The notes beneath the pieces were generated by a model. The model ran no database searches and was not told where the DNA came from. It worked only from the letters and a program-made list of their open reading frames with translations. A DNA stretch of 64,000 nt from a virus (taxonomy: Duplodnaviria; Caudoviricetes). The stretch spans positions 1 to 64,000 of the IMG/VR virus record IMGVR_UViG_3300014641_000001, one strand, 5' to 3'. The position numbers and the translations under genes are program-made. Shown here in pieces: positions 6,312-45,500 of this stretch (position 1 is the first letter of the stretch; every line of letters begins with the position of its first letter).

Positions 6312-6384
6312 GGGTGTATAGCTTAGTTGGTAAAGCAATCGGCTTTTAACCGATAGACCTTGGGTTCAACCCCCAATACACCCA
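6312..6384 (+). tRNA. tRNA-Lys(UUU)
   Basis: Cloverleaf: acceptor GGGTGTA/TACACCC, anticodon arm ATCGG-CTTTTAA-CCGAT, GGTTCAAC T-loop. Confidence 0.93.
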
Positions 6385-14774: not shown

Positions 14775-14848
14775 ACGAGTGTACCCAAGTGGTGAAGGGA
14801 TACGGCTTATATCCGTTAACGCCAAAGGTTCGATTCCTTTCACTCGTA
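14775..14848 (+). tRNA. tRNA-Ile(UAU)
   Basis: Acceptor ACGAGTG/CACTCGT, anticodon loop CT-TAT-AT, GGTTCGATTCC T-arm. Confidence 0.85.
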
Positions 14849-16587: not shown

Positions 16588-16672
16588 GTTTGCGTGGTCG
16601 AGAGGCTTATGACATCTGTCTTGAAAACAGAAGTGTTGAAAGGCACCGTGGGTTCAAATCCTACCGCAAACG
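16588..16672 (+). tRNA. tRNA-Ser(UGA)
   Basis: Acceptor GTTTGCG/CGCAAAC, loop CT-TGA-AA, long variable arm. Confidence 0.9.
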
Positions 16673-16744: not shown

Positions 16745-16816
16745 GCCGATGTAGCACAATGGCTGTGCAGCTCACTTGTAATGAGAAGGTTGTTGGTTCA
16801 AATCCAATCGTCGGCT
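16745..16816 (+). tRNA. tRNA-Thr(UGU)
   Basis: Acceptor GCCGATG/CGTCGGC, anticodon arm CTCA-CTTGTAA-TGAG. Confidence 0.9.
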
Positions 16817-34976: not shown

Positions 34977-35035
34977 TAGTATATTTTAAGAGCTGATCGC
35001 GATGGTCGGCTCTTATTTAAATTGGAGGAAAATCT

Positions 35036-35242
35036 ATGATTAATTATATTAAATCAAAGTTATTCTTTGCGAAACTTAAGATGGAGTTATATAAAGCGTT
35101 ATCTCACAGCGAAGATTATTTAGAGATGTTCACAAAGTTGGCTGTTGCTTCTAAGGATATGACACCCGAAGAAGTAAAAAGTGAATTTCTTAAGGAGTTT
35201 GCTGGTGTCGTCCATGATTATGTACATAGAGATGATAAGTAA
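35036..35242 (+). CDS. Hypothetical protein
   Basis: GGAGG SD. Confidence 0.6.
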   Translation: MINYIKSKLFFAKLKMELYKALSHSEDYLEMFTKLAVASKDMTPEEVKSEFLKEFAGVVHDYVHRDDK

Positions 35243-35682
35243 TGGCTAGAACTTTTAAATCTTTTATTGAAATGGAAAACTTTATTGACTCAGCATGTGA
35301 AAATGCCGTAAAGAAAACTTGCAATAGATTACTTGGGACTTTGCAAGAATTAATTATGTCAGAATACTATGATGCGTATGAACCCAAACAGTACCAAAGA
35401 ACTATGCAGTTCTATGAATCAGCAATGACAGAAATGCTTACTAGTACTTGTGGACAGATCTTTATGAATCCAGACAAGATGGATTATCCTTTTAGCGGAA
35501 GGGGTTGGTCATGGGACGGCGCTACTCAGATATCCGCTGCTAATGAAGGAATTCATGGTGGCTGGACAACTAAAGAGTCAGTACAACATAGATACTGGGA
35601 TGAATTTGAAAGTTATTGTGATAACAACGCTCTGAAAATTCTCAAAGAGGAACTTAAAAGGGCGGGCGTAGATACAAAATAA
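35242..35682 (+). CDS. Tail module protein (possible neck/gp10-like)
   Basis: 'YYDAYEP..YQRT'; lies before the tape measure gene. Confidence 0.55.
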   Translation: MARTFKSFIEMENFIDSACENAVKKTCNRLLGTLQELIMSEYYDAYEPKQYQRTMQFYESAMTEMLTSTCGQIFMNPDKMDYPFSGRGWSWDGATQISAANEGIHGGWTTKESVQHRYWDEFESYCDNNALKILKEELKRAGVDTK

Positions 35683-35780
35683 AATCTCCACCATATTATA
35701 GTCAACATTTATTTATTAACCCACTCTCCTTTCACACAAGGGGAGTTTTTTATTGTGTAAATTTTTGAGAGGAGAATTAT

Positions 35781-37153
35781 ATGGCTGATTTTAGAACTCT
35801 CGTAGAACTTATATTTGATAAAGCAAAAGCGAGAAATGAATTAAATAGCATTTTAAAGGAATTACAAAAAGACGCCAATTTAAAAACGGAAATAAAAGTC
35901 GGTACTTCTGAAGCAAAGAAGGCAAAAAAGGATTTAAATGAAACCGCTTCAGCAATTGGGAAGATTGTAACTGAATCTAGGCAGTTGTCAAAAGTTAATA
36001 CAATTAAGACATGGGCTGACAACAACACTAAAGCCATGAAGATGTTTGGTGATCAGATTCAGGACATCATCACCAAAATGGGAAAGGCTAATCTTTCGCT
36101 GTCTGATTTTAAAGGTCTAGATGCCGATTTTAATAGGATTAAAATAGCGTCCAGAGATATGAATTTACTTGGTAAGACCTGGGGTGATTCGTTTAAGGCA
36201 GACGCAAGCAAATTTGCTTCATGGTTGCTTCCTTCTGGCGGAATCATGACTGCCATTAGTGGACTGCGTAAAATGAAGGATTCTATCGTTGATATAGATA
36301 CAGCCATGACTAATCTATATAAGGTGTCCGATGAAACAGACTCAAAATATAGACAGTTTCTTCAAAGTTCAAATATAGAAGCCCAGAGACTTGGGAGAAC
36401 AGTATCCAGTCTCATTGAGCAAACTGCAACTTGGAAAAAACTTGGTTTTACCACTGATGAGTCAAGTGAATTGGCGAAAATATCATCAATTTATGCTAAC
36501 GTAGGTGAAGTGTCTGATGACACTGCTGTTTCGGATTTAGTGACAGCAATGAAAGCCTTTAACATTGCAGGATCAGACAGTATAACAATTGTAGATTCGC
36601 TTAACAAATTGGGTAACGAATTTGCTACCGATGCTGCCTCTCTCGGAGAAGGACTAAAAAACTCCGCATCTTCTCTTCGTCTTGCAGGAAACGATATAGA
36701 TCAGACTCTTGCTATGCTAACAGGTGGTACAGAAATTATTCAGAATGCAGGAGAAATGGGAAATGCTCTGAAAATACTGAGTATGAGAATACGAGGTATG
36801 AAAGGCGAGCTGGAAGCACTCGGAGAAGAATATGACAATGTGGAGTCAATATCAAAAATCCAAACCCAGATCTTGAATCGTACTGGCGGTACAGTAAATA
36901 TATTTGACAATAATGGAAACTTCAAGTCTACGTATGAGATACTAAAGGGAATATCAGAAGTATGGGATAAAATTTCTCAAACCGACCAGGCCGACCTTTT
37001 AGAAGTTATCGCGGGTAAACAGCGCGGTAACAGCGTTGCAGCTTTAATTCAATCATTCCAATCTGGGCAAGTGCAAAAGGCATTAGAGGCTTCAATGAAC
37101 TCTGCTGGATCAGCTTATGAAGAACAGAGCAAATGGATGGAATCAATTGAGGC
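35781..37153 (+). CDS. Tape measure protein, exon 1
   Basis: TP901-like TMP core ('DTAMTNLYKVSDET', 'IVDSLNKLGNEFA', 'GNALKILSMRIRG', 'IAGKQRGN'); reading continues only if spliced after GAG GC. Confidence 0.88.
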
Positions 37154-37562
37154 AGACTTTTGCCTCGTTGCGTAGAAATATGTAACATTAATATATTTAA
37201 TTGCAGGTAATGCCTTAGAGCCTTACACCACAATATAGGGGAAACCACTATATGATGGTTTTACAACGTAAGGATTGGCTGTTCATGCAGCGAAGCACCC
37301 TAACGTATTCCGTAGACCATACGGTACTTTAGTCGAGGGTGAACGTTCAACGACTAGATTCATGTCGAGATTTGGACTAGAGAATAAGGGTGGAAATCCC
37401 GAATATCCAGATCAATAATCGTAGGGCGCAAATCGCAAATGGCGTGGGTGAAATTCCCTTAAATCGAAAAGGTATACTCTCAGCACGTAGTGGTGGAGAT
37501 GAAGAAATAGTCTAGTCTCATATGAAAATATGAGTTGATTGTTATTATAAAAAAGGAGTTTG

Positions 37563-37697
37563 AATGAAAAAATTCGTCAAAGAATATTCAACTCAATTAA
37601 CCCCATTAAAGGAGTATTTGGAGAAGGAATTAAATCCTCTTTCGCAAAAGTGATCTAAGGAGTAACTACATATAAGTACACAAATTCTGGAGAGTAA
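37563..37697 (+). pseudogene. Degenerate paralog of the 30829 gene, inside intron 1
   Basis: AAGGAG SD; 'MKKFVKEYSTQL...KGIKSSFAKVI*GVTTYKY' with frameshift and stop. Confidence 0.5.
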
Positions 37698-37761
37698 TTT
37701 ATATTACTCTCCTATTTTTATACAAGTAAATAGATAATTAAAGGAGAATAAACGTGGATAA

Positions 37762-39198
37762 ATGAACAAAAAATATAATCAAGAGAAGGCAATAGAAATT
37801 ATGCAGTCATACGGATATAAACTTGACGACATATATAAATCATATAACCATAAACTAAGAATAGTTGATAATGATGGATATATCTATTATAGAAGCCTTG
37901 GTGACATATTATCAAATAAAACACCCACGAAATTTGGTCGTGGGAATCCATTTACAATTGAGAATATTAAAAATTACACTTATCAAAATAATATACAAAC
38001 ACAATTGCTGTCTGAATCTTTTACTGAATCTAGTGGTTTATTATTATGGAAGTGTAGTTGTGGCAAATCATATACATGCTCGTGGAATGCATTTGAAAAC
38101 GATAAACATTTATGCAATGATTGCTCGATTAAAGACAGAGGACTTAAGCAAAGAATCAACAAGGCTAATGTAATTGATAAGGTTAAAAGTATGGGCTATC
38201 ATATTGTTGAAATTGCTGATGATATATGTGTTTTCGACAGCATAAAAATATCAGACGATTTAGGATATAAATATTATCCAGTAATAAATAATATCATATA
38301 CGATAAAAGACCTTTTAGGTTTCATAAATCAAATATTTTTTCAATCGATAATGTAAATAACTATTTTAGGCTAATTGGAGAAACTGATTATACATGCGTT
38401 AGCAATGAATATATTGACAATACCTCTGACTTGGAAATATTACATAAAAAATGCGGAACGGTATTTAATGCCAAACTCACTAAACTAACTGACAAAGGAG
38501 TTAGTTATTGCAATATGTGTCCAAAATGTAAAACGACTAAAACCGAATCGGTTCACGCATCAGTTCTGAAACAAGTATTTCTAAATAAACATCCTGATTC
38601 TGTATTAGAGGATAAATCTTGCATAAACTCAAAGACAGGCTACTCGCTCCCTACTGATATCGTTAATCACAGATTAAAATTGGCAATAGAAATACAAAGT
38701 TCTCTACATGATAATAGAAAGGATATTGATCTGTATAAAAAGAATTTCTGGATTGATAGAGGGTATGATTTTTATTCTCCCGATATTAGAGATTATTCTA
38801 TATTGGGTATGATACAATTATTTTTTAAAGATATCGAATCAATACCAAAATATATAGATTATAACTTTTCGAATTGTGTGGATTTCATCGAAATACAAAA
38901 CATGATTGATTCGGGGCATACGATTATTGAGATAGCTAGTATTAAGAATATCTCAGAAGCTACAATAAGGGGGCTCGTCACTGACAAAAAGGTAATCTTG
39001 CCTCCCGACTATAAAAATAAAATATTTAAAATAAAACCCATATTAAGGCTTGATGTTAAGGGAAATGTAATTAAAAGATATGAATCGTTAAGTTCTATAT
39101 CAAGAGATGGATTCGCCACAGGTACCATTAGAAGAGTATTAAAAGGTAAACAAAAGTTGTCGTATGGAACGAAATGGATTTATGACATAAAAAAATAA
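37762..39198 (+). CDS. Intron-encoded homing endonuclease (Zn motifs, PD-(D/E)XK-like core, NUMOD1-like tail)
   Basis: 'PTDIVN...AIEIQSSLHD'; CSC/CNDC/CPKC; C-terminal 'DVKGNVIKRYESL...GTKWIY'. Confidence 0.78.
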   Translation: MNKKYNQEKAIEIMQSYGYKLDDIYKSYNHKLRIVDNDGYIYYRSLGDILSNKTPTKFGRGNPFTIENIKNYTYQNNIQTQLLSESFTESSGLLLWKCSCGKSYTCSWNAFENDKHLCNDCSIKDRGLKQRINKANVIDKVKSMGYHIVEIADDICVFDSIKISDDLGYKYYPVINNIIYDKRPFRFHKSNIFSIDNVNNYFRLIGETDYTCVSNEYIDNTSDLEILHKKCGTVFNAKLTKLTDKGVSYCNMCPKCKTTKTESVHASVLKQVFLNKHPDSVLEDKSCINSKTGYSLPTDIVNHRLKLAIEIQSSLHDNRKDIDLYKKNFWIDRGYDFYSPDIRDYSILGMIQLFFKDIESIPKYIDYNFSNCVDFIEIQNMIDSGHTIIEIASIKNISEATIRGLVTDKKVILPPDYKNKIFKIKPILRLDVKGNVIKRYESLSSISRDGFATGTIRRVLKGKQKLSYGTKWIYDIKK

Positions 39199-39244
39199 AA
39201 ATAACAATCAAAGAATGGTATTGCGAACCATTCTAAATATATCG

Positions 39245-39434
39245 AAAAACACAACAGTATGAAGCTTCATTTCAATCACTATCACAAACTATTATTAATT
39301 CAAATTTCTTAAAGTTTCTTATAGATTCTGGTACGACATTTAATAATGTATTAGATAAGACAATAAACGGCTTTGGTGTTTTGTCTACTACGCTTTCCGG
39401 TGCTGGTATAGCGGCATTCATTAAAAACTACGGT
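39245..39434 (+). CDS. Tape measure protein, exon 2 (not in ORF track)
   Basis: No start codon; reads (A)KTQQYEASFQSLSQTIINSNFLKFLIDSG...GIAAFIKNYG, in frame with exons 1 and 3. Confidence 0.82.
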
Positions 39435-40079
39435 TAACTCTGTAATAAGAGTTACGCTTAAATTTCCGAGGGATTTAAGTTGGCCTATCATGGGGAAGAA
39501 TATATCATAATGGCGATATAAACAATTCCATGGGACGAAAGTTTTAAAATAAAAAGAGGATTAATTGCTTGAAAGTGTAATGCTCACTACTCTTCTATTT
39601 TAGAAGAAACCGAAAAATAAGGTAAATAAGTCAAACGGTTTACACACCGGAGTGAGATTTCTAGGGATAAAAAATAATTCCCGACAGATGTACAATCACC
39701 AACGAAGCAGCTAGCCCTATCTGTGTATCACGATGTATAATCCGATGGTAACAATTGCGCAAGCAATGTCGGGATAAGATCATTAATGATAGGGAGTGTT
39801 CAGAGAGCACCACTCCTCACAGTACATGAAAGCCATATTTCATTGTGCTGTTAACGCATGTTCCAAAGTGTACACGATATCAACGCTTCACGAGGCGCTG
39901 GATATTATAATGTTGTAAAAGATATGGGCTACAGCCTATCATTGAGCGTAATATGGAAAAGTTAATCGTTTCTATGTTATGTATCAAAATAGTTATGTAG
40001 ATTCTCCCATATTTTTAAATAAAGTATTTATTCTCCTTTTTATATGATTGAATACTAATATAATGTACCATCCTATATA

Positions 40080-40283
40080 TTGTTTGAATATAATACAATA
40101 AATCAAATGGAGATGTATAGAAATATGACGAAAAAAATTATTAATTTGACCGAAGAAGGCGAAGCTCTAGGATATCCAAAAACTCCAGATTCTGAGATGA
40201 TAGAGATGGGTATATTTGATGGAAAGATAATCAATTTTATAAAAGTAATGTTTATAAAGATAGTTAAAATGATGAAAAGGTAG
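40080..40283 (+). CDS. Small hypothetical protein (intron 2 cargo)
   Basis: GGAG SD suggests a later start (about 40124); ends at a hairpin. Confidence 0.4.
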   Translation: MFEYNTINQMEMYRNMTKKIINLTEEGEALGYPKTPDSEMIEMGIFDGKIINFIKVMFIKIVKMMKR

Positions 40284-40296
40284 TCAATAGACTACC

Positions 40297-40458
40297 TTAT
40301 TCCTCGTTCTTTTTATTTTTGTCGTTATCATTAACATGTTTAATTTCTGAGAACATCTCTACCACATATTCTGGTCTAGGCGTACTTGGATACTGTTCTC
40401 CTTTTTCATTGGTGTTATTAGTACTTGTCATCTTGATAACATTTTCATCGTCTGACAT
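40297..40458 (-). CDS. Small hypothetical protein, 53 aa (intron 2 cargo, not in track)
   Basis: GGAGGAG SD; 'MSDDENVIKMTS...KKNEE'; overlaps the end of the upstream membrane gene. Confidence 0.6.
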   Translation of the reverse strand: MSDDENVIKMTSTNNTNEKGEQYPSTPRPEYVVEMFSEIKHVNDNDKNKKNEE

Positions 40459-41023
40459 TTATTTCTCCTCCTTCTATATGAATATTTTGTATATTATTAT
40501 TTATAAATTTGGTCTCATAGTAATCAATACCGACACCGAATGTATACGATAAAATAGATACTGCGAAAGTGATGCATATGAAATAACTCAACGATTTATG
40601 TTTCATGTTCTTTGTAATGTTCACATTTCTATTATGAATGGCTTCATTAATAAAACATTCACAGAGCATATTATTTACATGTATATCTGCTTTTTTAATA
40701 TGCTTTTTATCTGTCATTTGATATGTTTGTGAGATCGCAACAGCCATATCTTTAATTGGGAAATAACTCATTTTATAGCCAGAGTATGCTTTATAAAACT
40801 TGTGCAAGCAAATTATAAATAAAATCGTTGACAAAGCGCAAAATATCAAGTAAACAATAGTACACCATGATAAAGAAAAACGAACAAATTGTGACCAAAG
40901 TAATATTTGTGCACTACCAAGTATTGTAAGAAACGTAATACAAGTATTAATTTTATTACTTAATCTATCGGAATATTCTATCTCCTTATAATATAAATCT
41001 TTGTATTCTTCAAGCAATTCCAT
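40445..41023 (-). CDS. Three-TM membrane protein (intron 2 cargo)
   Basis: AAGGAG SD; three hydrophobic segments. Confidence 0.75.
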   Translation of the reverse strand: MELLEEYKDLYYKEIEYSDRLSNKINTCITFLTILGSAQILLWSQFVRFSLSWCTIVYLIFCALSTILFIICLHKFYKAYSGYKMSYFPIKDMAVAISQTYQMTDKKHIKKADIHVNNMLCECFINEAIHNRNVNITKNMKHKSLSYFICITFAVSILSYTFGVGIDYYETKFINNNIQNIHIEGGEINVRR

Positions 41024-41309
41024 ATGATGATGTTCTCCTTTGTATCATATGGAATATTTTACCATCGTCAATACAATAAAACAAGAAACAGATGTTTGTC
41101 GATGAGGATATAAAATCGACATATTTCGACATTTATAATATTGAGTTAGTCATTAAGCTGTATATTAAAATAACATAAGCTGAACCCCTCTTTTATACTA
41201 CAATCTTGCGTCTTACTAGCTTCATTGTTTTCAAAATTTTTATACCTATCTGGAAATTTCTTCCACTCCATGATATAATAATTTTTAAAAGAGATACAGG
41301 AGGGATTGT

Positions 41310-41900
41310 ATGAAAAGGTTGGTTTTAGGGTTGTTATGTATCACTGTATGTTTACAATTAAGTGCTTGTGATAAAAACACGTCGGTCACCACAAGTAAAG
41401 AAAAAGAAACAATAACAGAATCATCAAATTTATCTGAAGATGAACAGAAAGCAGAATTAAATGCGATCTATCAAGAAATTGACGAAGCAAATAAATACTG
41501 TAATGATTTGGCAAAACTATTATATGACTATTGGGACAACCGTGAATATGAAGCGTTTTTTGACCACAGTGTTTTTTTGGAAAGAGATAAAAAATATAAT
41601 ACATACGGGAATTATAATAGTGGTAGTTTTTATGGCGATGCAAAGACCTGCTATGAATATCGTGATAAAATTGAAAAAAATATGGAAGATGCACGTCAAA
41701 GATTGAAAGAATTAGAGGTGTCTGAAAGTGTACAGGGGTATTATGATTCTGTAAAGAAGTTGTATTTGAATGTCGATGCATATCATAGTTTTGCATCTGA
41801 TTTCCCAGAAGGTTATTCAAAAATTACATATTCTCAAACATTTAGTAAACATCAATCAGAATACGACTCTTTAATAAGTGAATTAAAGTTTGAGCAGTAG
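41310..41900 (+). CDS. Lipoprotein (intron 2 cargo)
   Basis: Signal peptide with lipobox 'LSAC'; promoter TGGAAA-17-TATAAT with extended TG; own terminator. Confidence 0.8.
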   Translation: MKRLVLGLLCITVCLQLSACDKNTSVTTSKEKETITESSNLSEDEQKAELNAIYQEIDEANKYCNDLAKLLYDYWDNREYEAFFDHSVFLERDKKYNTYGNYNSGSFYGDAKTCYEYRDKIEKNMEDARQRLKELEVSESVQGYYDSVKKLYLNVDAYHSFASDFPEGYSKITYSQTFSKHQSEYDSLISELKFEQ

Positions 41901-41969
41901 TATATAAAAAGTTTGCTGACAGTATTAGTATATTCTAATAAATTATTTTTAGATATGATCACAAAATTT

Positions 41970-41998
41970 AGAGCCAGTTATTTGACTAGCTCTTTTTT
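41970..41998 (+). terminator. Intrinsic terminator inside intron 2, between convergent genes
   Basis: AGAGCCAGTT/GACTAGCTCT followed by T tract. Confidence 0.7.
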
Positions 41999-42063
41999 GT
42001 ATATAAAAGGGAGCAAAAATGCACTATCATATACGCTACAATTTTTCGATTTACTAATATCAA

Positions 42064-42489
42064 TCAAAACTTACTTCCACAGTTATTACACTTCCAAGTC
42101 TTACCGTTATCTCCCATGCCGAAAATTCCAAATGCAGCTATCTTTGCGACCTTTTTTGTTGCGGATATTTTAGAGAGGTTTGTGCTGCTACATGTGGGGC
42201 ACTTTGGAACATTTTGATGTGTACCTTTTGGAATGTATCCGGCTAAAAGACGAGTATCGCTTCCGGTAGTGGGTAAATCTTCTCTTGTGATTAAATCTGT
42301 GTCGGAAACATTCCCACAACAACATGTAATTAGAATTCCATCTTTTAACTTGCAATAATCTGAATTTACTCTATCAAATTTGTCATCTATTCCCTCTTTT
42401 ACAAATATTGTATTCCCGCATTTTTCGCAGAGTATTTCTATTTCTATTGGTGATCCATTCTCGTTATTAATAGCTTTTTTTAAATACAT
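42064..42489 (-). CDS. Zn-ribbon protein (intron 2 cargo)
   Basis: GGGAGGG SD before ATG 42489; CEKC, 'PKCPTCSSTN..KIS...K.WKCNNCG.KF'. Confidence 0.78.
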   Translation of the reverse strand: MYLKKAINNENGSPIEIEILCEKCGNTIFVKEGIDDKFDRVNSDYCKLKDGILITCCCGNVSDTDLITREDLPTTGSDTRLLAGYIPKGTHQNVPKCPTCSSTNLSKISATKKVAKIAAFGIFGMGDNGKTWKCNNCGSKF

Positions 42490-42518
42490 AGTTCCCTCCC
42501 TATACATATTTTATTATG

Positions 42519-45500
42519 CAACTGCAATCCCTCGGAAAGTCGATTGTGAACTTTAATAGCATTATAGCATCTGGGACAGGAACAAATCAATCTTTTGCGA
42601 AAGTTTTAGAAGGGATTAGCACACAGGAAAAAATCAATTTAGTAACTAGAAGCAGTCTAACCGATGCTCAAAAGATTGGTATTCTTGCAACAGCTGGTTT
42701 AAGTGCAGAGGAATTGAAAGCAGTAGCTTCCACTACTACTCTCTCCACTTCACAGACCACTGCAACAGCAACTACAACTGGATTCGGTACTGCCCTTAAA
42801 GGTCTTTGGGCAACCATGATGGCAAATCCTTTAATTGCAATAGGAATGGCCGTAACAGCTATCTCAACAGCATGGAATATTTATAATCAGTCCATCGAAA
42901 AAACAAGACAAGCTTCGGCCGATGCGGCGGGCGCATTAAACGAAACCACCTCATCAATTAATGATTATGCTGAAAAGTATAAAAAATTACACGATGAACT
43001 TGTCAAGGCAAATACTACCGAAGAACGTCAACATGAAATAAAAAGTGACCTTCTTGCGCTTCAACAAGAATTAAATGATAAGTACGGAGATGAATATGGC
43101 AAATTAAATCTTGTTACAGATGCTTATAATGATCAAACCGATGCAATCCTAGCAAGAAACAAAGCCGCGGCGCAGAATTATCTTCTTGAAAATAGAAAAG
43201 GTATAGCCGATGCTACAAAACAAATGGAACAAGACCGCACTTATACACTTGGTAGCACTGGTAATTTATCAAACGACTATGCAAAAGAAATATATAATAT
43301 AGCGTCAAAATATTCAGACCAGGGCATAAAATTAGAGTCTCTTAAAAATAACGGAGTAGATGCCTATACTATTAAGTTTTATGGAAATGCAGAAAATGCA
43401 GAAAAAGTTATACGTAGCCTCTCCAATGAGATCCAAGATCTTGGGCATAAATACGAAGATAATAATTTCATCAATGGATTCTTAGATAACTCAACAAATG
43501 CACTTAAAGAGAATCAAAAAACATTAGATAAATATGATGAAATATATAACTCTGCATTGATGTCTCAAATTGCAACTGACAATGAATTGTCGGGAGGTTA
43601 CGAGAAGGCCACAAGTGCCGTTAAAGCATATAACGATGCACTAATTTCTGGTGACGAATCTAAAATATTATCGACAAGAGATGACCTCAATGAAGTTAAA
43701 AATTCCATTGATTTAACAAGCGAAAACTGGAAACGATACGGGAATGTAATGACTGATATTTTCAGCCAGGCAAACACAGGGCTATACGATTTCAGAGATG
43801 CACTCTCTTCAAACAACGATAATATCAAAGACTATGCTAAAAGTCTAAAAGGTTTATCAAAGACAGATGTAATGTCCATGGCAAATGATGGGCAAGATGA
43901 TAACTTTGATAAAATAGTTAAATCTGCTGATAAATATGGATTAAGCGTTAACCAGGTCATCGATGAACTAATCAGATTGAAATACGTTCAAGATGATATC
44001 TTCAAGTCTGGTGAAGCAACATTCACTCCTCTCTCCAAACAAGAAGTAATTTCAAACATCAATTCACTGTCCGAAGGTTTTGAATCCCTTGATAAAATTA
44101 TGAAGAGCATATCCGACAAAGACAATCCATTTGACTATGCTCTGCTTGATGATGGTAAGTTTACGAAGATATTCAGCACCCTAAATGATGGTGGTGAAGC
44201 TTACGCTAACTTCATCGAAAAAGTGTCGTCATCACCCAAAGATATAAAAGCTACTCAAAGTGCATTTAACGATCTGGTAACAACTTGGATTGATAGCTCT
44301 GGTGTATTAGATGGGCTTACCGAAGACAATGCTAACCTTGCTACTGCTATGCTTCAGAATATGGGTGTTGCTAATGCCGAAGAAGTTGTAATGACAAGAC
44401 TTTCCATTGTACAGGAACACCTGGCAGCGCAAAAAGCTTATACGGCAGAAATGAGTGACGCTCTCGCCAATGCTACAGCTAGTGAAATTCCAGGAATCAT
44501 AGAAGAAGCAACTCAAAGTGACATAGCTAAAGTTGCACTGGCTGGTCTGGTATTAGAGAAAGAATTCTTCAATGGAAATGCACTAGATACTAGTGGTGAC
44601 ATTGAGAATATTATCTCTCTTGTTGGAGTAATTGGAACTGCTAATACGGCACTCAAAGCTTTAAATACTTTAAAGGCCGGAGGTAGTGTTGGTGGCAACA
44701 TAGGCGGAAAAGAAGGTTATGAAGCTCTTGTAAGAAATGCAGAAAAGGAAGCCGAAGACGCAATAAAATCTGCTTCCGAATATAAAGGCAAGGGAGCAAA
44801 TATTAATGCATCGTATACAGGTGGTACAAAAACAAATAAACCATCTGGCTCTAAAAAGGATAAAAAAGATTTCTCAGAAGTATTTGACTGGGTAGAAACT
44901 ACAATTAAACGAGTAGACGAAAAGATCCAAGACATCCAGAGTAAAATTTCTGATACATCAAACTGGAAGCCTAAAAACACTCTTACAGATACAGCTATTG
45001 ATGAAATGGCAAATAAAATAACTGCCTTACAGTCTCAGTTAGATACATACCAGAAGAAGGCAGATTCTTACAACCTCTCTCCCACTTACATAGACAAAAT
45101 CAAAAATGGCACTCTTGAAATTGAAACTGTTACTGATGAAGTAATTGCAAACAATATCAAAGGTTATCAAGAATGGTATAACAAAGCTGAAGATGTTCGC
45201 AAGAAGATAGATGAAACAAAAAAGACTTTGAAAGAACTTGCTCAGACCAAACTTGAAAATATTATCAATGATTTTGATAGTCTTGTTTCGTTAATGGATA
45301 AGTACGCTTCATATAGTAATAATCTTTTAAATCTACAAAAGGAATTGGGCGAATCTATTACCAATACAGATTATGAACGGTTAATTAATCAACAGGAAGC
45401 AATTTATAAGCAGTTGCATAGTAAGTATAATTCGCTATCCAATGAATTATCTAAAGCGGTAAGTAAAGGAACAATTGAGGTGGGTTCAAATGAATGGCGT

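Follow-up and report, generated by a model that had tools for sequence, protein, structure and literature searches.

A putative group I intron with accessory-gene cargo in a tape measure gene of temperate Lachnospiraceae phages

The tape measure protein (TMP) gene in the DNA analysed here (the window: the first 64 kb of the 124-kb IMG/VR virus record IMGVR_UViG_3300014641_000001) is interrupted at two points, and comparative analysis indicates that the second interruption, which we call intron 2, is most likely a cis-splicing group I intron that carries accessory genes as cargo. The lineage that hosts it is one of temperate phages of Lachnospiraceae. To our knowledge, group I introns carry at most a mobility gene, either a homing endonuclease gene (HEG) or, in IStrons, a transposon, and full-text literature searches on group I introns with cargo, defence or morons returned no description of variable non-mobility genes.

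The exons are recognizable by comparison with uninterrupted TMP homologs of 2124-2289 amino acids (aa), which were found by a protein search starting from the exon 1 piece and have the same domain set as the window TMP. With those of 2124-2202 aa, the three exons line up in the same order and without gaps. Exons 1, 2 and 3 are collinear by BLASTP with the intact proteins P0001, P0002, P0003, P0006, P0096 and P0101, residue 458 of exon 1 abuts exon 2 in these alignments, and the last glycine of exon 2 and the first glutamine of exon 3 fall without a gap on residues 563/564 of P0006. Two intron-less alleles read ...KNFE|QLKN... and ...ENFQ|DLKS... in their DNA at the same point, which, together with the collinearity of the three pieces, makes this one gene of three exons and two interruptions (Table 1). 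An earlier note on this DNA, made from the letters alone, had exon 2 end in ...AAC TAC GGT at 39434 before a TAA and had a G at 42518 precede CAACTGCAA at 42519; both features are present, and the uninterrupted ...KNYG-QLQSLG... that it obtained by joining the exons agrees with the intact homologs. The predicted ligation product, ...KNYG-QLQSLGK..., would be a TMP of about 2125 aa with the RNA junction ...AACTACGGT^CAACTGCAA... Exon 2 is conserved in all related loci, and exon 3, with its C-terminal choline-binding repeats (Pfam PF19127, PF19085), stays open over 1531-1613 aa in divergent relatives.

These exon boundaries bear on an alternative in which no splicing occurs, the insertion is an accessory-gene hotspot at the DNA level, and the TMP is made as two polypeptides of ~520 aa and ~1600 aa that work together, or the prophages are defective; the ~470-nt RNA would then have another role, for example in regulation or antisense control. 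We regard this as very unlikely. An ATG at 42516 directly precedes the exon 3 frame in the window, as separate translation would have it, but the equivalent triplet is ATG in 5/15 loci and ACG, TCG or AGG in 8/15, with only its G conserved, so that exon 3 is left without a conserved start codon. No Shine-Dalgarno sequence lies upstream of exon 3; the window's ATG has no such purine-rich stretch before it, in agreement with the earlier note, and this, together with the non-ATG triplets, argues against separate translation of exon 3. The position of the insertion, in frame and gapless relative to intact TMPs, likewise speaks for one interrupted reading frame rather than for two proteins.

The RNA that follows exon 2 supports the reading of intron 2 as a group I intron. 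All catalytic helices, P1-P9, lie within its first ~470 nt, and we drew a group I structure by hand and tested it on an alignment of 17 distinct core sequences (A4). Standard pairs fill 93.4% of 1613 cells in A4, as compared with 84.9% in column shuffles, none of 500 of which reaches that share, and with 37-45% in controls in which the 3' partner was slid by 1-3 columns. Both-sided changes occur at 38 of 97 pairs, against 22.6 in shuffles (0/500 reach the observed value), and are found in P2 (5 pairs), P2.1 (4), P3 (2), P8 (7), P4 (1 pair, UA to CG in six sequences) and P7 (1 pair, AU to GC), and the central pairs of P5 covary as well (UA to CG in 6 sequences, GU to CG in 7). The group I topology P3-[P4-P5-P6]-P7-P3'-P8-P7', with its P3/P7 pseudoknot, fits A4, a fold that the alternative without splicing does not lead one to expect, and we conclude from these patterns that the predicted intron 2 RNA has the defining group I architecture. 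The core that the earlier note had read from one sequence, with P7 as GAGCA/UGUUC, a P8 and an R-like element, is thereby backed by covariation. By eye, the core resembles the RF00028 consensus in AAUUGC..GAAA (P), GCAGC (Q) and GUUCAGAGAGCA (R) and is only partly similar to it in the S/J8-7 element, UAAYRYAUGUUC; P3' begins 4 nt after P7, so that intron 2 has no P7.1 or P7.2.

The pairing of the guide with both exon ends is conserved and covaries. P1 in the window pairs GGU|UAAC with GUUGGCC, and the wobble at the 5' splice site (U39434-G39483) is U-G in 17/17 sequences. At exon position -2, the same sequences have AU in 7 (exon GAU, guide GUC), CG in 5 (GCU, GGC) and GC in 5 (GGU, GCC, the window type). 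The terminal G is invariant, and the two nucleotides before it vary among the loci (AT, TT, TC, AC, AG). A self-comparison of the window brought out the complementarity of 39465-39484 to the first 20 nt of exon 3, and this P10-forming guide segment sits just 5' of the P1 part, as in group I introns; the pairing of AGTTGGCC (39478-39485) with both exon ends, as proposed in the earlier note, is confirmed and turns out to extend much farther into exon 3 than that note claimed. The window duplex has a predicted energy of -26.6 kcal/mol, as against -7.8 +/- 2.5 for shuffled exon sequence. Gap-free pairing with the guide involves 13-21 of the first 21 exon 3 nucleotides in 15/15 loci, and all 21 in L033, L034 and L036, with RNAduplex energies of -16.5 to -28.9 kcal/mol (-4 to -8 for shuffled exon sequence).

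This long P10 is kept in all 15 loci by compensatory changes that track coding changes in exon 3, which bears out the covariation between guide and 3' exon for which the earlier note had looked to homologs. The paired exon 3 and guide sequences are CCCUCGGAAA and UUUCCGAGGG in the window, AUCUAGGUAA and UUGCCUAGAU in L014, GAUAUCGGAAU and AUUCCGAUAUC in L047, and AUCCCUGGC and GCCAGGGU in L037. Where exon 3 starts with CAUCUU, encoding His instead of Gln, the guide has AAGGUG instead of AAGUUG or AAGAUG, as in the change from CAACUU/AAGUUG to CAUCUU/AAGGUG. An RNA that does not splice would give no reason for its pairing with both exon ends to follow changes in the coding sequence.

The site of the element is fixed and its contents vary. 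Homologs came from four sources, namely tblastn-confirmed IMG/VR loci and scans for an exact 24-mer, an invariant stretch of the core, in IMG/VR, GTDB genomes and metagenomes, and about 30 loci were gathered, 17 with distinct core sequences. The carriers, about 20 of which have the element at the site seen in the window, are phages (IMG/VR contigs), Lachnospiraceae prophages and metagenome contigs; the prophages include those of Enterocloster lavalensis KCTC 15153 (L040), [Clostridium] asparagiforme DSM 15981 (L041), Lacrimispora sp. HJ-01 (L042), a Clostridium sp. and a Lachnospiraceae bacterium. Each genome, including that of the window, has one copy at the same TMP site, and wherever the flank is long enough, the core comes right after the exon 2 homolog, at the same codon in each case. 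Identity to the window is 66-100% over the first ~440-475 nt, and the sequence beyond them is unrelated between most loci. Measured between the two splice sites, the introns are 542 nt (L037, which has no open reading frame [ORF]), 881 nt (L047), 1124 nt (L032 and L041, the [Clostridium] asparagiforme prophage), 1712 nt (L014), 1796 nt (L011), 1873 nt (L012), 3084 nt (window), 3498 nt (L009), 3857 nt (L042), 4238 nt (L013), 4416 nt (L010), 4686 nt (L036), 5453 nt (L035) and 5702 nt (L033 and L034) long; that of L038 exceeds 6 kb, a lower bound, as its 3' end lies outside the examined stretch. Cargo at this one site thus ranges from 0 to about 5.2 kb, in keeping with the conserved core and variable cargo that the earlier note had envisaged in related phages, and the 542-nt version without cargo interrupts the gene in the same way, which speaks against a hotspot without splicing. 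In INPHARED, megablast and tblastn found no near relatives; exon 2 weakly matched the TMP of the Thomasclavelia phages TR-TP1 and TR-TP2, and this was the sole hit.

Several observations weigh against splicing of intron 2 as a group I intron in cis. The covariation in P3 and P7 depends on one divergent sequence, L047. With RF00028 and a cut-off of E<=10, neither 39400-40100 nor the cargo-less homolog L037 gives a match, and 35000-43500 gives none except intron 1, so that the search of the core with group I models that the earlier note had suggested was negative for this model; at the gathering threshold, Rfam finds only tRNAs in the whole window. This result would suit the alternative without splicing, although we attribute it to the divergence of the core from the model and to its enlarged P5 and P6. 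Only 3 bp of P1 involve the exon, and the first intron nucleotides are better conserved as part of a local hairpin than as the intron side of P1. The first seven nucleotides of the intron take part in that hairpin (A; 97% paired, six sequences having GC for AU), and a second one (B) sequesters part of the guide, its 5' strand resembling exon 3; the presence of these two conserved local hairpins in the P1 loop hints at a possible conformational switch. Intron 2 further contains a hairpin at 41970-41993 that is terminator-like on the sense strand and is followed by a T run, and the antisense genes, with a promoter-like site, would make transcription converge across the 3' splice site. An ordinary moron island also looks like this, with terminators inside it and genes in independent orientations, as the alternative without splicing would have it.

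Because of the sense-strand terminator, splicing in cis would need read-through, or else the reaction would be bimolecular, and a long P10 would suit either. In the bimolecular case, the transcript from the TMP promoter would stop at the internal terminators, a second RNA from the cargo bay or the 3' spacer would carry the terminal G and exon 3, and the 20-bp duplex would join the two. Compatible with this scheme are a guide/exon 3 duplex far longer than the usual P10, with energies of -16 to -29 kcal/mol that are enough for intermolecular pairing, and the 11-97 nt of AT-rich spacer found ahead of the 3' splice site in cargo-bearing introns. We nevertheless think it unlikely. L037, with neither cargo nor internal genes, has the long P10 as well, so that this feature is no mark of split transcription. 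Ahead of the 3' splice site, no conserved promoter on the sense strand came to light, and the 26 promoter-like sites of the window are no enrichment over the 21.3 +/- 5.2 expected from shuffled sequence. Phage late transcription, moreover, often reads through terminators.

We therefore retain splicing in cis as the preferred reading, and propose that it would proceed as follows. Late transcription would read the pre-mRNA through intron 2, and the guide would pair with the last three nucleotides of exon 2, placing the U-G wobble at the 5' splice site. After the first step, ~20 nt of guide (39465-39484) would pair with the first 20 nt of exon 3, and the long P10 so formed would tether a 3' splice site that lies 2.6 kb away; the terminal G would enter the G-binding site in P7, and ligation of the exons would restore the TMP. 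The cargo genes, many of them antisense, would be expressed from promoters of their own, for example in the lysogen, and intron 2 would give morons and defence genes a neutral place to dock within a late gene that is essential. More broadly, and with somewhat less confidence than we place in the intron itself, we favour the view that temperate gut phages use a group I ribozyme as a heritable 'cargo bay', in which a P10 of ~20 bp allows splicing across any insert. Defence systems, toxins, repressor/antirepressor cassettes and envelope proteins could be exchanged there by recombination and, in the lysogen, be transcribed from promoters of their own, most of them antisense; such a class of hotspot for accessory genes would depend on RNA catalysis, and it might act in trans, past the terminators inside the intron.

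Other pairings considered for these elements were rejected. P7 as AGCAC/GUGCU was discarded because GUGCU covaries within P8, P3 as GGAGUG/CACUCC because AGUGAG pairs with CUCACU in all sequences, and a P4 formed with the strand CAAGCA of the GNRA hairpin because the AUUGC-GNRA-GCAAU hairpin is invariant. A structure from RNAalifold only was set aside, as it cannot represent the P3/P7 pseudoknot and wrongly pairs P4 to the R element. A transposon with terminal inverted repeats was rejected as an account of the guide/exon 3 complementarity, since the left arm is set 30 nt into the insert and the right one falls in conserved coding sequence of exon 3. RNAalifold also pairs AAACU.CG in the 5' exon (39425-39432) with CG.AAAGUUU just after P2 (39538-39546), all positions being invariant and without covariation; this might be an extra tether of the 5' exon that offsets the short P1.

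Table 1. Features of the tape measure gene and of its two interruptions (positions in the window)
Feature	Position	Strand	Evidence or details
TMP exon 1	35781..37153	+	PhageMin_Tail, Pfam PF10145, E=1.4e-21; aligns to P0001 residues 3-460
Intron 1, canonical group I intron	37154..39244	+	Rfam RF00028, 56.2 bits, E=1.9e-12, at 37144-37534
HNH homing endonuclease ORF, 478 aa, downstream of intron 1 core	37762-39198	+	phrog_559, E=1.8e-19
TMP exon 2, 63 codons, last nucleotide U 39434	39245..39434	+	P0001 residues 461-522, directly after exon 1
Putative intron 2, whole (ribozyme core, cargo bay, terminal G; 3084 nt)	39435..42518	+	Collinearity with intact TMPs; P1/P10 pairing conserved, 15 loci
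P1 / internal guide region	39435..39485	+	Hairpin A 39435-39454; hairpin B / extended guide 39457-39482; internal guide sequence GUUGGCC 39479-39485
Predicted ribozyme core	39486..39905	+	Hand-drawn structure tested on 17-sequence alignment
P2 and P2.1	39488-39533	+	Hand-drawn group I structure
P3	39556-60/39814-18	+	GAGGA/UCCUC
J3/4		+	UUAAU
P4	39566-70/39705-09	+	UGCUU/AAGCA
P5	39575-79/39689-93	+	GUGUA/UGUAC; then P5abc-like three-way extension 39583-39682
P6	39710-11/39798-99	+	GC/GU; long extension 39715-39794 ending in invariant GNRA-capped hairpin
J6/7		+	UCAGA
P7	39805-09/39859-63	+	GAGCA/UGUUC
P8, 13 bp	39819-39851	+	Hand-drawn group I structure
J8/7		+	UAACGCA
P9, one hairpin	39877-39905	+	Tested by pair counts
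Cargo ORF, 67 aa	40080..40283	+	No Pfam, PHROG or PADLOC match; 100% identical in L009
Cargo ORF, 53 aa	40297..40458	-	No known family; 100% identical in L009
Cargo ORF, 192 aa, three hydrophobic (transmembrane-like) segments	40445..41023	-	No family match; 99.5% identical in L009
Promoter-like site for 192-aa ORF	41071-41044	-	10/12 matches
Promoter-like site for lipoprotein ORF	41251-41279	+	10/12, extended -10
Lipoprotein ORF, 196 aa, leader ends in lipobox LSAC	41310..41900	+	From translation
G+C-rich hairpin flanked by T/A runs, between convergent cargo genes	41970..41993	.	Terminator-like on both strands
Antisense Zn-ribbon protein, 147 aa	42064..42507	-	Weak Zn-ribbon Pfam matches; start codon 11 nt from 3' splice site
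Terminal G (omega G) of intron 2	42518..42518	+	G in 15/15 loci
First 20 nt of exon 3, extended P10 target	42519..42538	+	Complementary to 39465-39484, 18/20 positions
TMP exon 3, 1604 codons	42519..47333	+	P0001 residues 538-2130; P0006 from residue 565

The cargo of the window lies between the P9 hairpin and the terminal G. Its five ORFs match no nuclease, transposase or defence family in Pfam, PHROG or PADLOC, in agreement with the earlier note, which had seen here a protein with three transmembrane segments, a lipoprotein, a Zn-ribbon protein and two small ORFs, none of them a recognisable endonuclease. The nearest Atlas clusters of the lipoprotein are Bacillota lipoproteins or hypothetical proteins and point to no function, and PHROG gave only a weak signal-peptide match; the Zn-ribbon protein has a weak Pfam match to Zn_ribbon_IS1595 (E=0.0098), and an Atlas look-up gave no function. 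The terminator scan reports the hairpin between the convergent genes on the minus strand only, and the plus-strand terminator is our reading of the sequence, in which TTTTTTG follows. The top promoter-like sites in the window (10/12) stand just upstream of three cargo genes, and one lies inside exon 3 and points into the intron. The best such site for the antisense Zn-ribbon gene, TTGATT-18-TGnTATAAT at 42561-42590 (minus strand), is inside exon 3, and its transcript would be complementary to the RNA of the 3' splice site and the P10 target, through which splicing could come under antisense control.

The cargo of relatives includes defence-type and toxin-type genes, which fits the suggestion of the earlier note that the ribozyme makes a landing pad for morons. 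NYN-domain proteins occur in L010 and L038, YbjQ-domain proteins in L010 and L036, MazF/PemK-like proteins in L011 and, weakly, in L033, a PBECR3 nuclease-like protein in L013, and secreted proteins with choline-binding repeats in L009 and L012. HTH repressors are paired with BRO-N/ANT or P22_AR_N/ANT antirepressors in L013 and L038, and in L033 an HTH plus S24 (LexA-like) protein stands beside a 582-aa GmrSD_N protein that matches PADLOC NsnA (E=1.3e-28). These divergent pairs of a repressor with an antirepressor or a GmrSD-like nuclease (L013:7039-8720, L038:3328-5575, L033:9198-11733) look like self-regulated cassettes rather than loose ORFs. The core of L009 is 100% identical to that of the window, and the first 1.3 kb of its cargo is 99.6% identical; past this shared part, a 363-aa secreted protein replaces the lipoprotein and the exon 3 start has diverged, a pattern which suggests that recombination has taken place inside the bay.

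The 3' end of the bay has a recurrent arrangement. The last gene is antisense in 14/14 cargo-bearing introns whose 3' end is included, with its start codon 11-97 nt from the 3' splice site, and nearly all of these last genes encode a conserved C-terminal Zn-ribbon module of ~45 aa (CPxC...CNxCG), found in L009, L011-L014, L032, L033, L035 and L036; an exception is L010, in which the last gene is a lipoprotein gene. The [Clostridium] asparagiforme prophage also has tandem Zn-ribbon paralogs upstream of its TMP gene, on the other strand (3-4 copies; L032, reverse strand, ~3.0-6.4 kb; L041:190-2134), and L035 has three Zn-ribbon paralogs inside the intron itself.

The layout of intron 2 is closest to that of IStrons (CdISt1, BcISt1, CbISt), in which a 5' group I ribozyme is combined with a 3' IS200/IS605 or IS607 element over 1.4-2.6 kb (Tourasse et al., 2014; PMC4227781). 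In both, the ribozyme is at the 5' end, a coding block separates the core from a distant 3' splice site, complementarity between 5' and 3' sequences helps to bring the ends together, the size is in kilobases, and the hosts are Clostridia and their phages; the cargo bay of intron 2 corresponds to the region where IStrons carry the insertion sequence element. Intron 2 could on these grounds be a degenerate IStron, or a homing intron, whose mobility gene was lost or replaced, with the antisense Zn-ribbon protein as its remnant or substitute, and the Zn-ribbon gene is indeed the one near-constant cargo item beside the 3' splice site, the sole gene of the 881-nt intron of L047, and in the window weakly similar to an IS1595 family. 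We consider such an origin highly improbable. No transposase, TnpB or HEG family (LAGLIDADG, GIY-YIG, HNH, His-Cys, PD-(D/E)XK and EDxHD were considered) was found by Pfam, PHROG and PADLOC in any cargo ORF examined, in the window or its relatives, and the Zn-ribbon module has paralogs elsewhere in these phages, shows no nuclease motif and is missing from the last gene of L010. Whereas IStrons are multi-copy and their transposase/TnpB module transposes to many and diverse sites marked by a target motif, every copy of intron 2 occupies one conserved, homologous site in one gene, with cargo that differs from phage to phage, is often antisense, reaches ~5.2 kb and consists of defence, toxin-like, regulatory and envelope genes. 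Lacking a transposase and restricted to a single insertion site, intron 2 does not qualify as an IStron despite its IStron-like layout.

Phage introns with an HEG resemble intron 2 in that they lie in essential structural genes, in that P10 helps to define their 3' splice site, and in that an ORF can follow the core at a distance from that splice site, the T4 nrdD/sunY intron being one with its ORF 3' of the core. Intron 1 of the window is of this kind, and TMP genes with HEG-bearing group I introns are documented elsewhere, as in ICP1 (PMC10448857). Such introns carry one sense-strand HEG, whereas intron 2 carries no HEG and, on its two strands, as many as about six unrelated genes; its P10 spans about 20 bp instead of a few, it is without the P7.1/P7.2 helices typical of phage IA2 introns, and it escapes RF00028. 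With prophage morons and defence hotspots, intron 2 shares variable, independently transcribed genes at a fixed position in syntenic phages and also their kinds of gene (type IV restriction-like, toxin-like, repressor/antirepressor, lipoprotein). Known hotspots, however, lie between genes, whereas this bay lies inside an essential coding sequence and would be harmless only by virtue of RNA splicing.

The comparative data indicate that one ribozyme hosts none to about six genes of many kinds, including restriction-like and toxin-like defence genes, at an insertion point that is fixed inside the TMP gene of prophages of common gut Lachnospiraceae, and they tie ribozyme biology to the current hunt for defence hotspots in phages. 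With an exon tether of 20 bp, the ribozyme may be able to locate a splice site that is several kilobases off, and nature would here offer a model of how payloads can be put into essential genes while these stay functional. In annotation, the TMP fragments of such phages and the islands taken for 'intergenic' would be parts of one gene, and the Rfam group I model misses this class of intron.

Intron 1, which lies in the same gene, offers a comparison. It is absent from relatives L009-L014, in which exons 1 and 2 are contiguous. By reading of the sequence (37149-37166, 39240-39250), its junction is GAG GC|...G|A AAA ACA, the only join that restores the frame, and its guide, TTTTGCCTC, is the exact complement of GAGGC+AAAA; it therefore seems to splice after a C, its 5' splice site having a C-G pair in place of the U-G wobble. 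A 5' exon that ends in C is a rare variant among group I introns.

Additional insertions of 1.3-1.6 kb are present elsewhere in exon 1 of related TMP genes (L011:1868-3457, L035:5148-6436, and L036 at the equivalent position on the reverse strand), after residues ~223 and ~337 of the window exon 1, so that the TMP gene of this phage lineage has at least four intron or insertion sites, among which the intron 2 site is the only one occupied in all these genes. In the Thomasclavelia phage TR-TP1 (L001; PQ571309.1, 23364-31193), the annotated TMP consists of separate 'tape measure' coding sequences interleaved with two HNH endonuclease genes, probably unannotated ordinary introns that bear HEGs. 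An intron-less relative has a TnpB-like gene (OrfB_IS605 / Cas12f1-like_TNB; L053:808-1908) immediately upstream of an uninterrupted 2202-aa TMP. In the window, four tRNA genes found with Rfam (6312-6384, 14775-14848, 16588-16672 and 16745-16816) lie upstream of the structural module.

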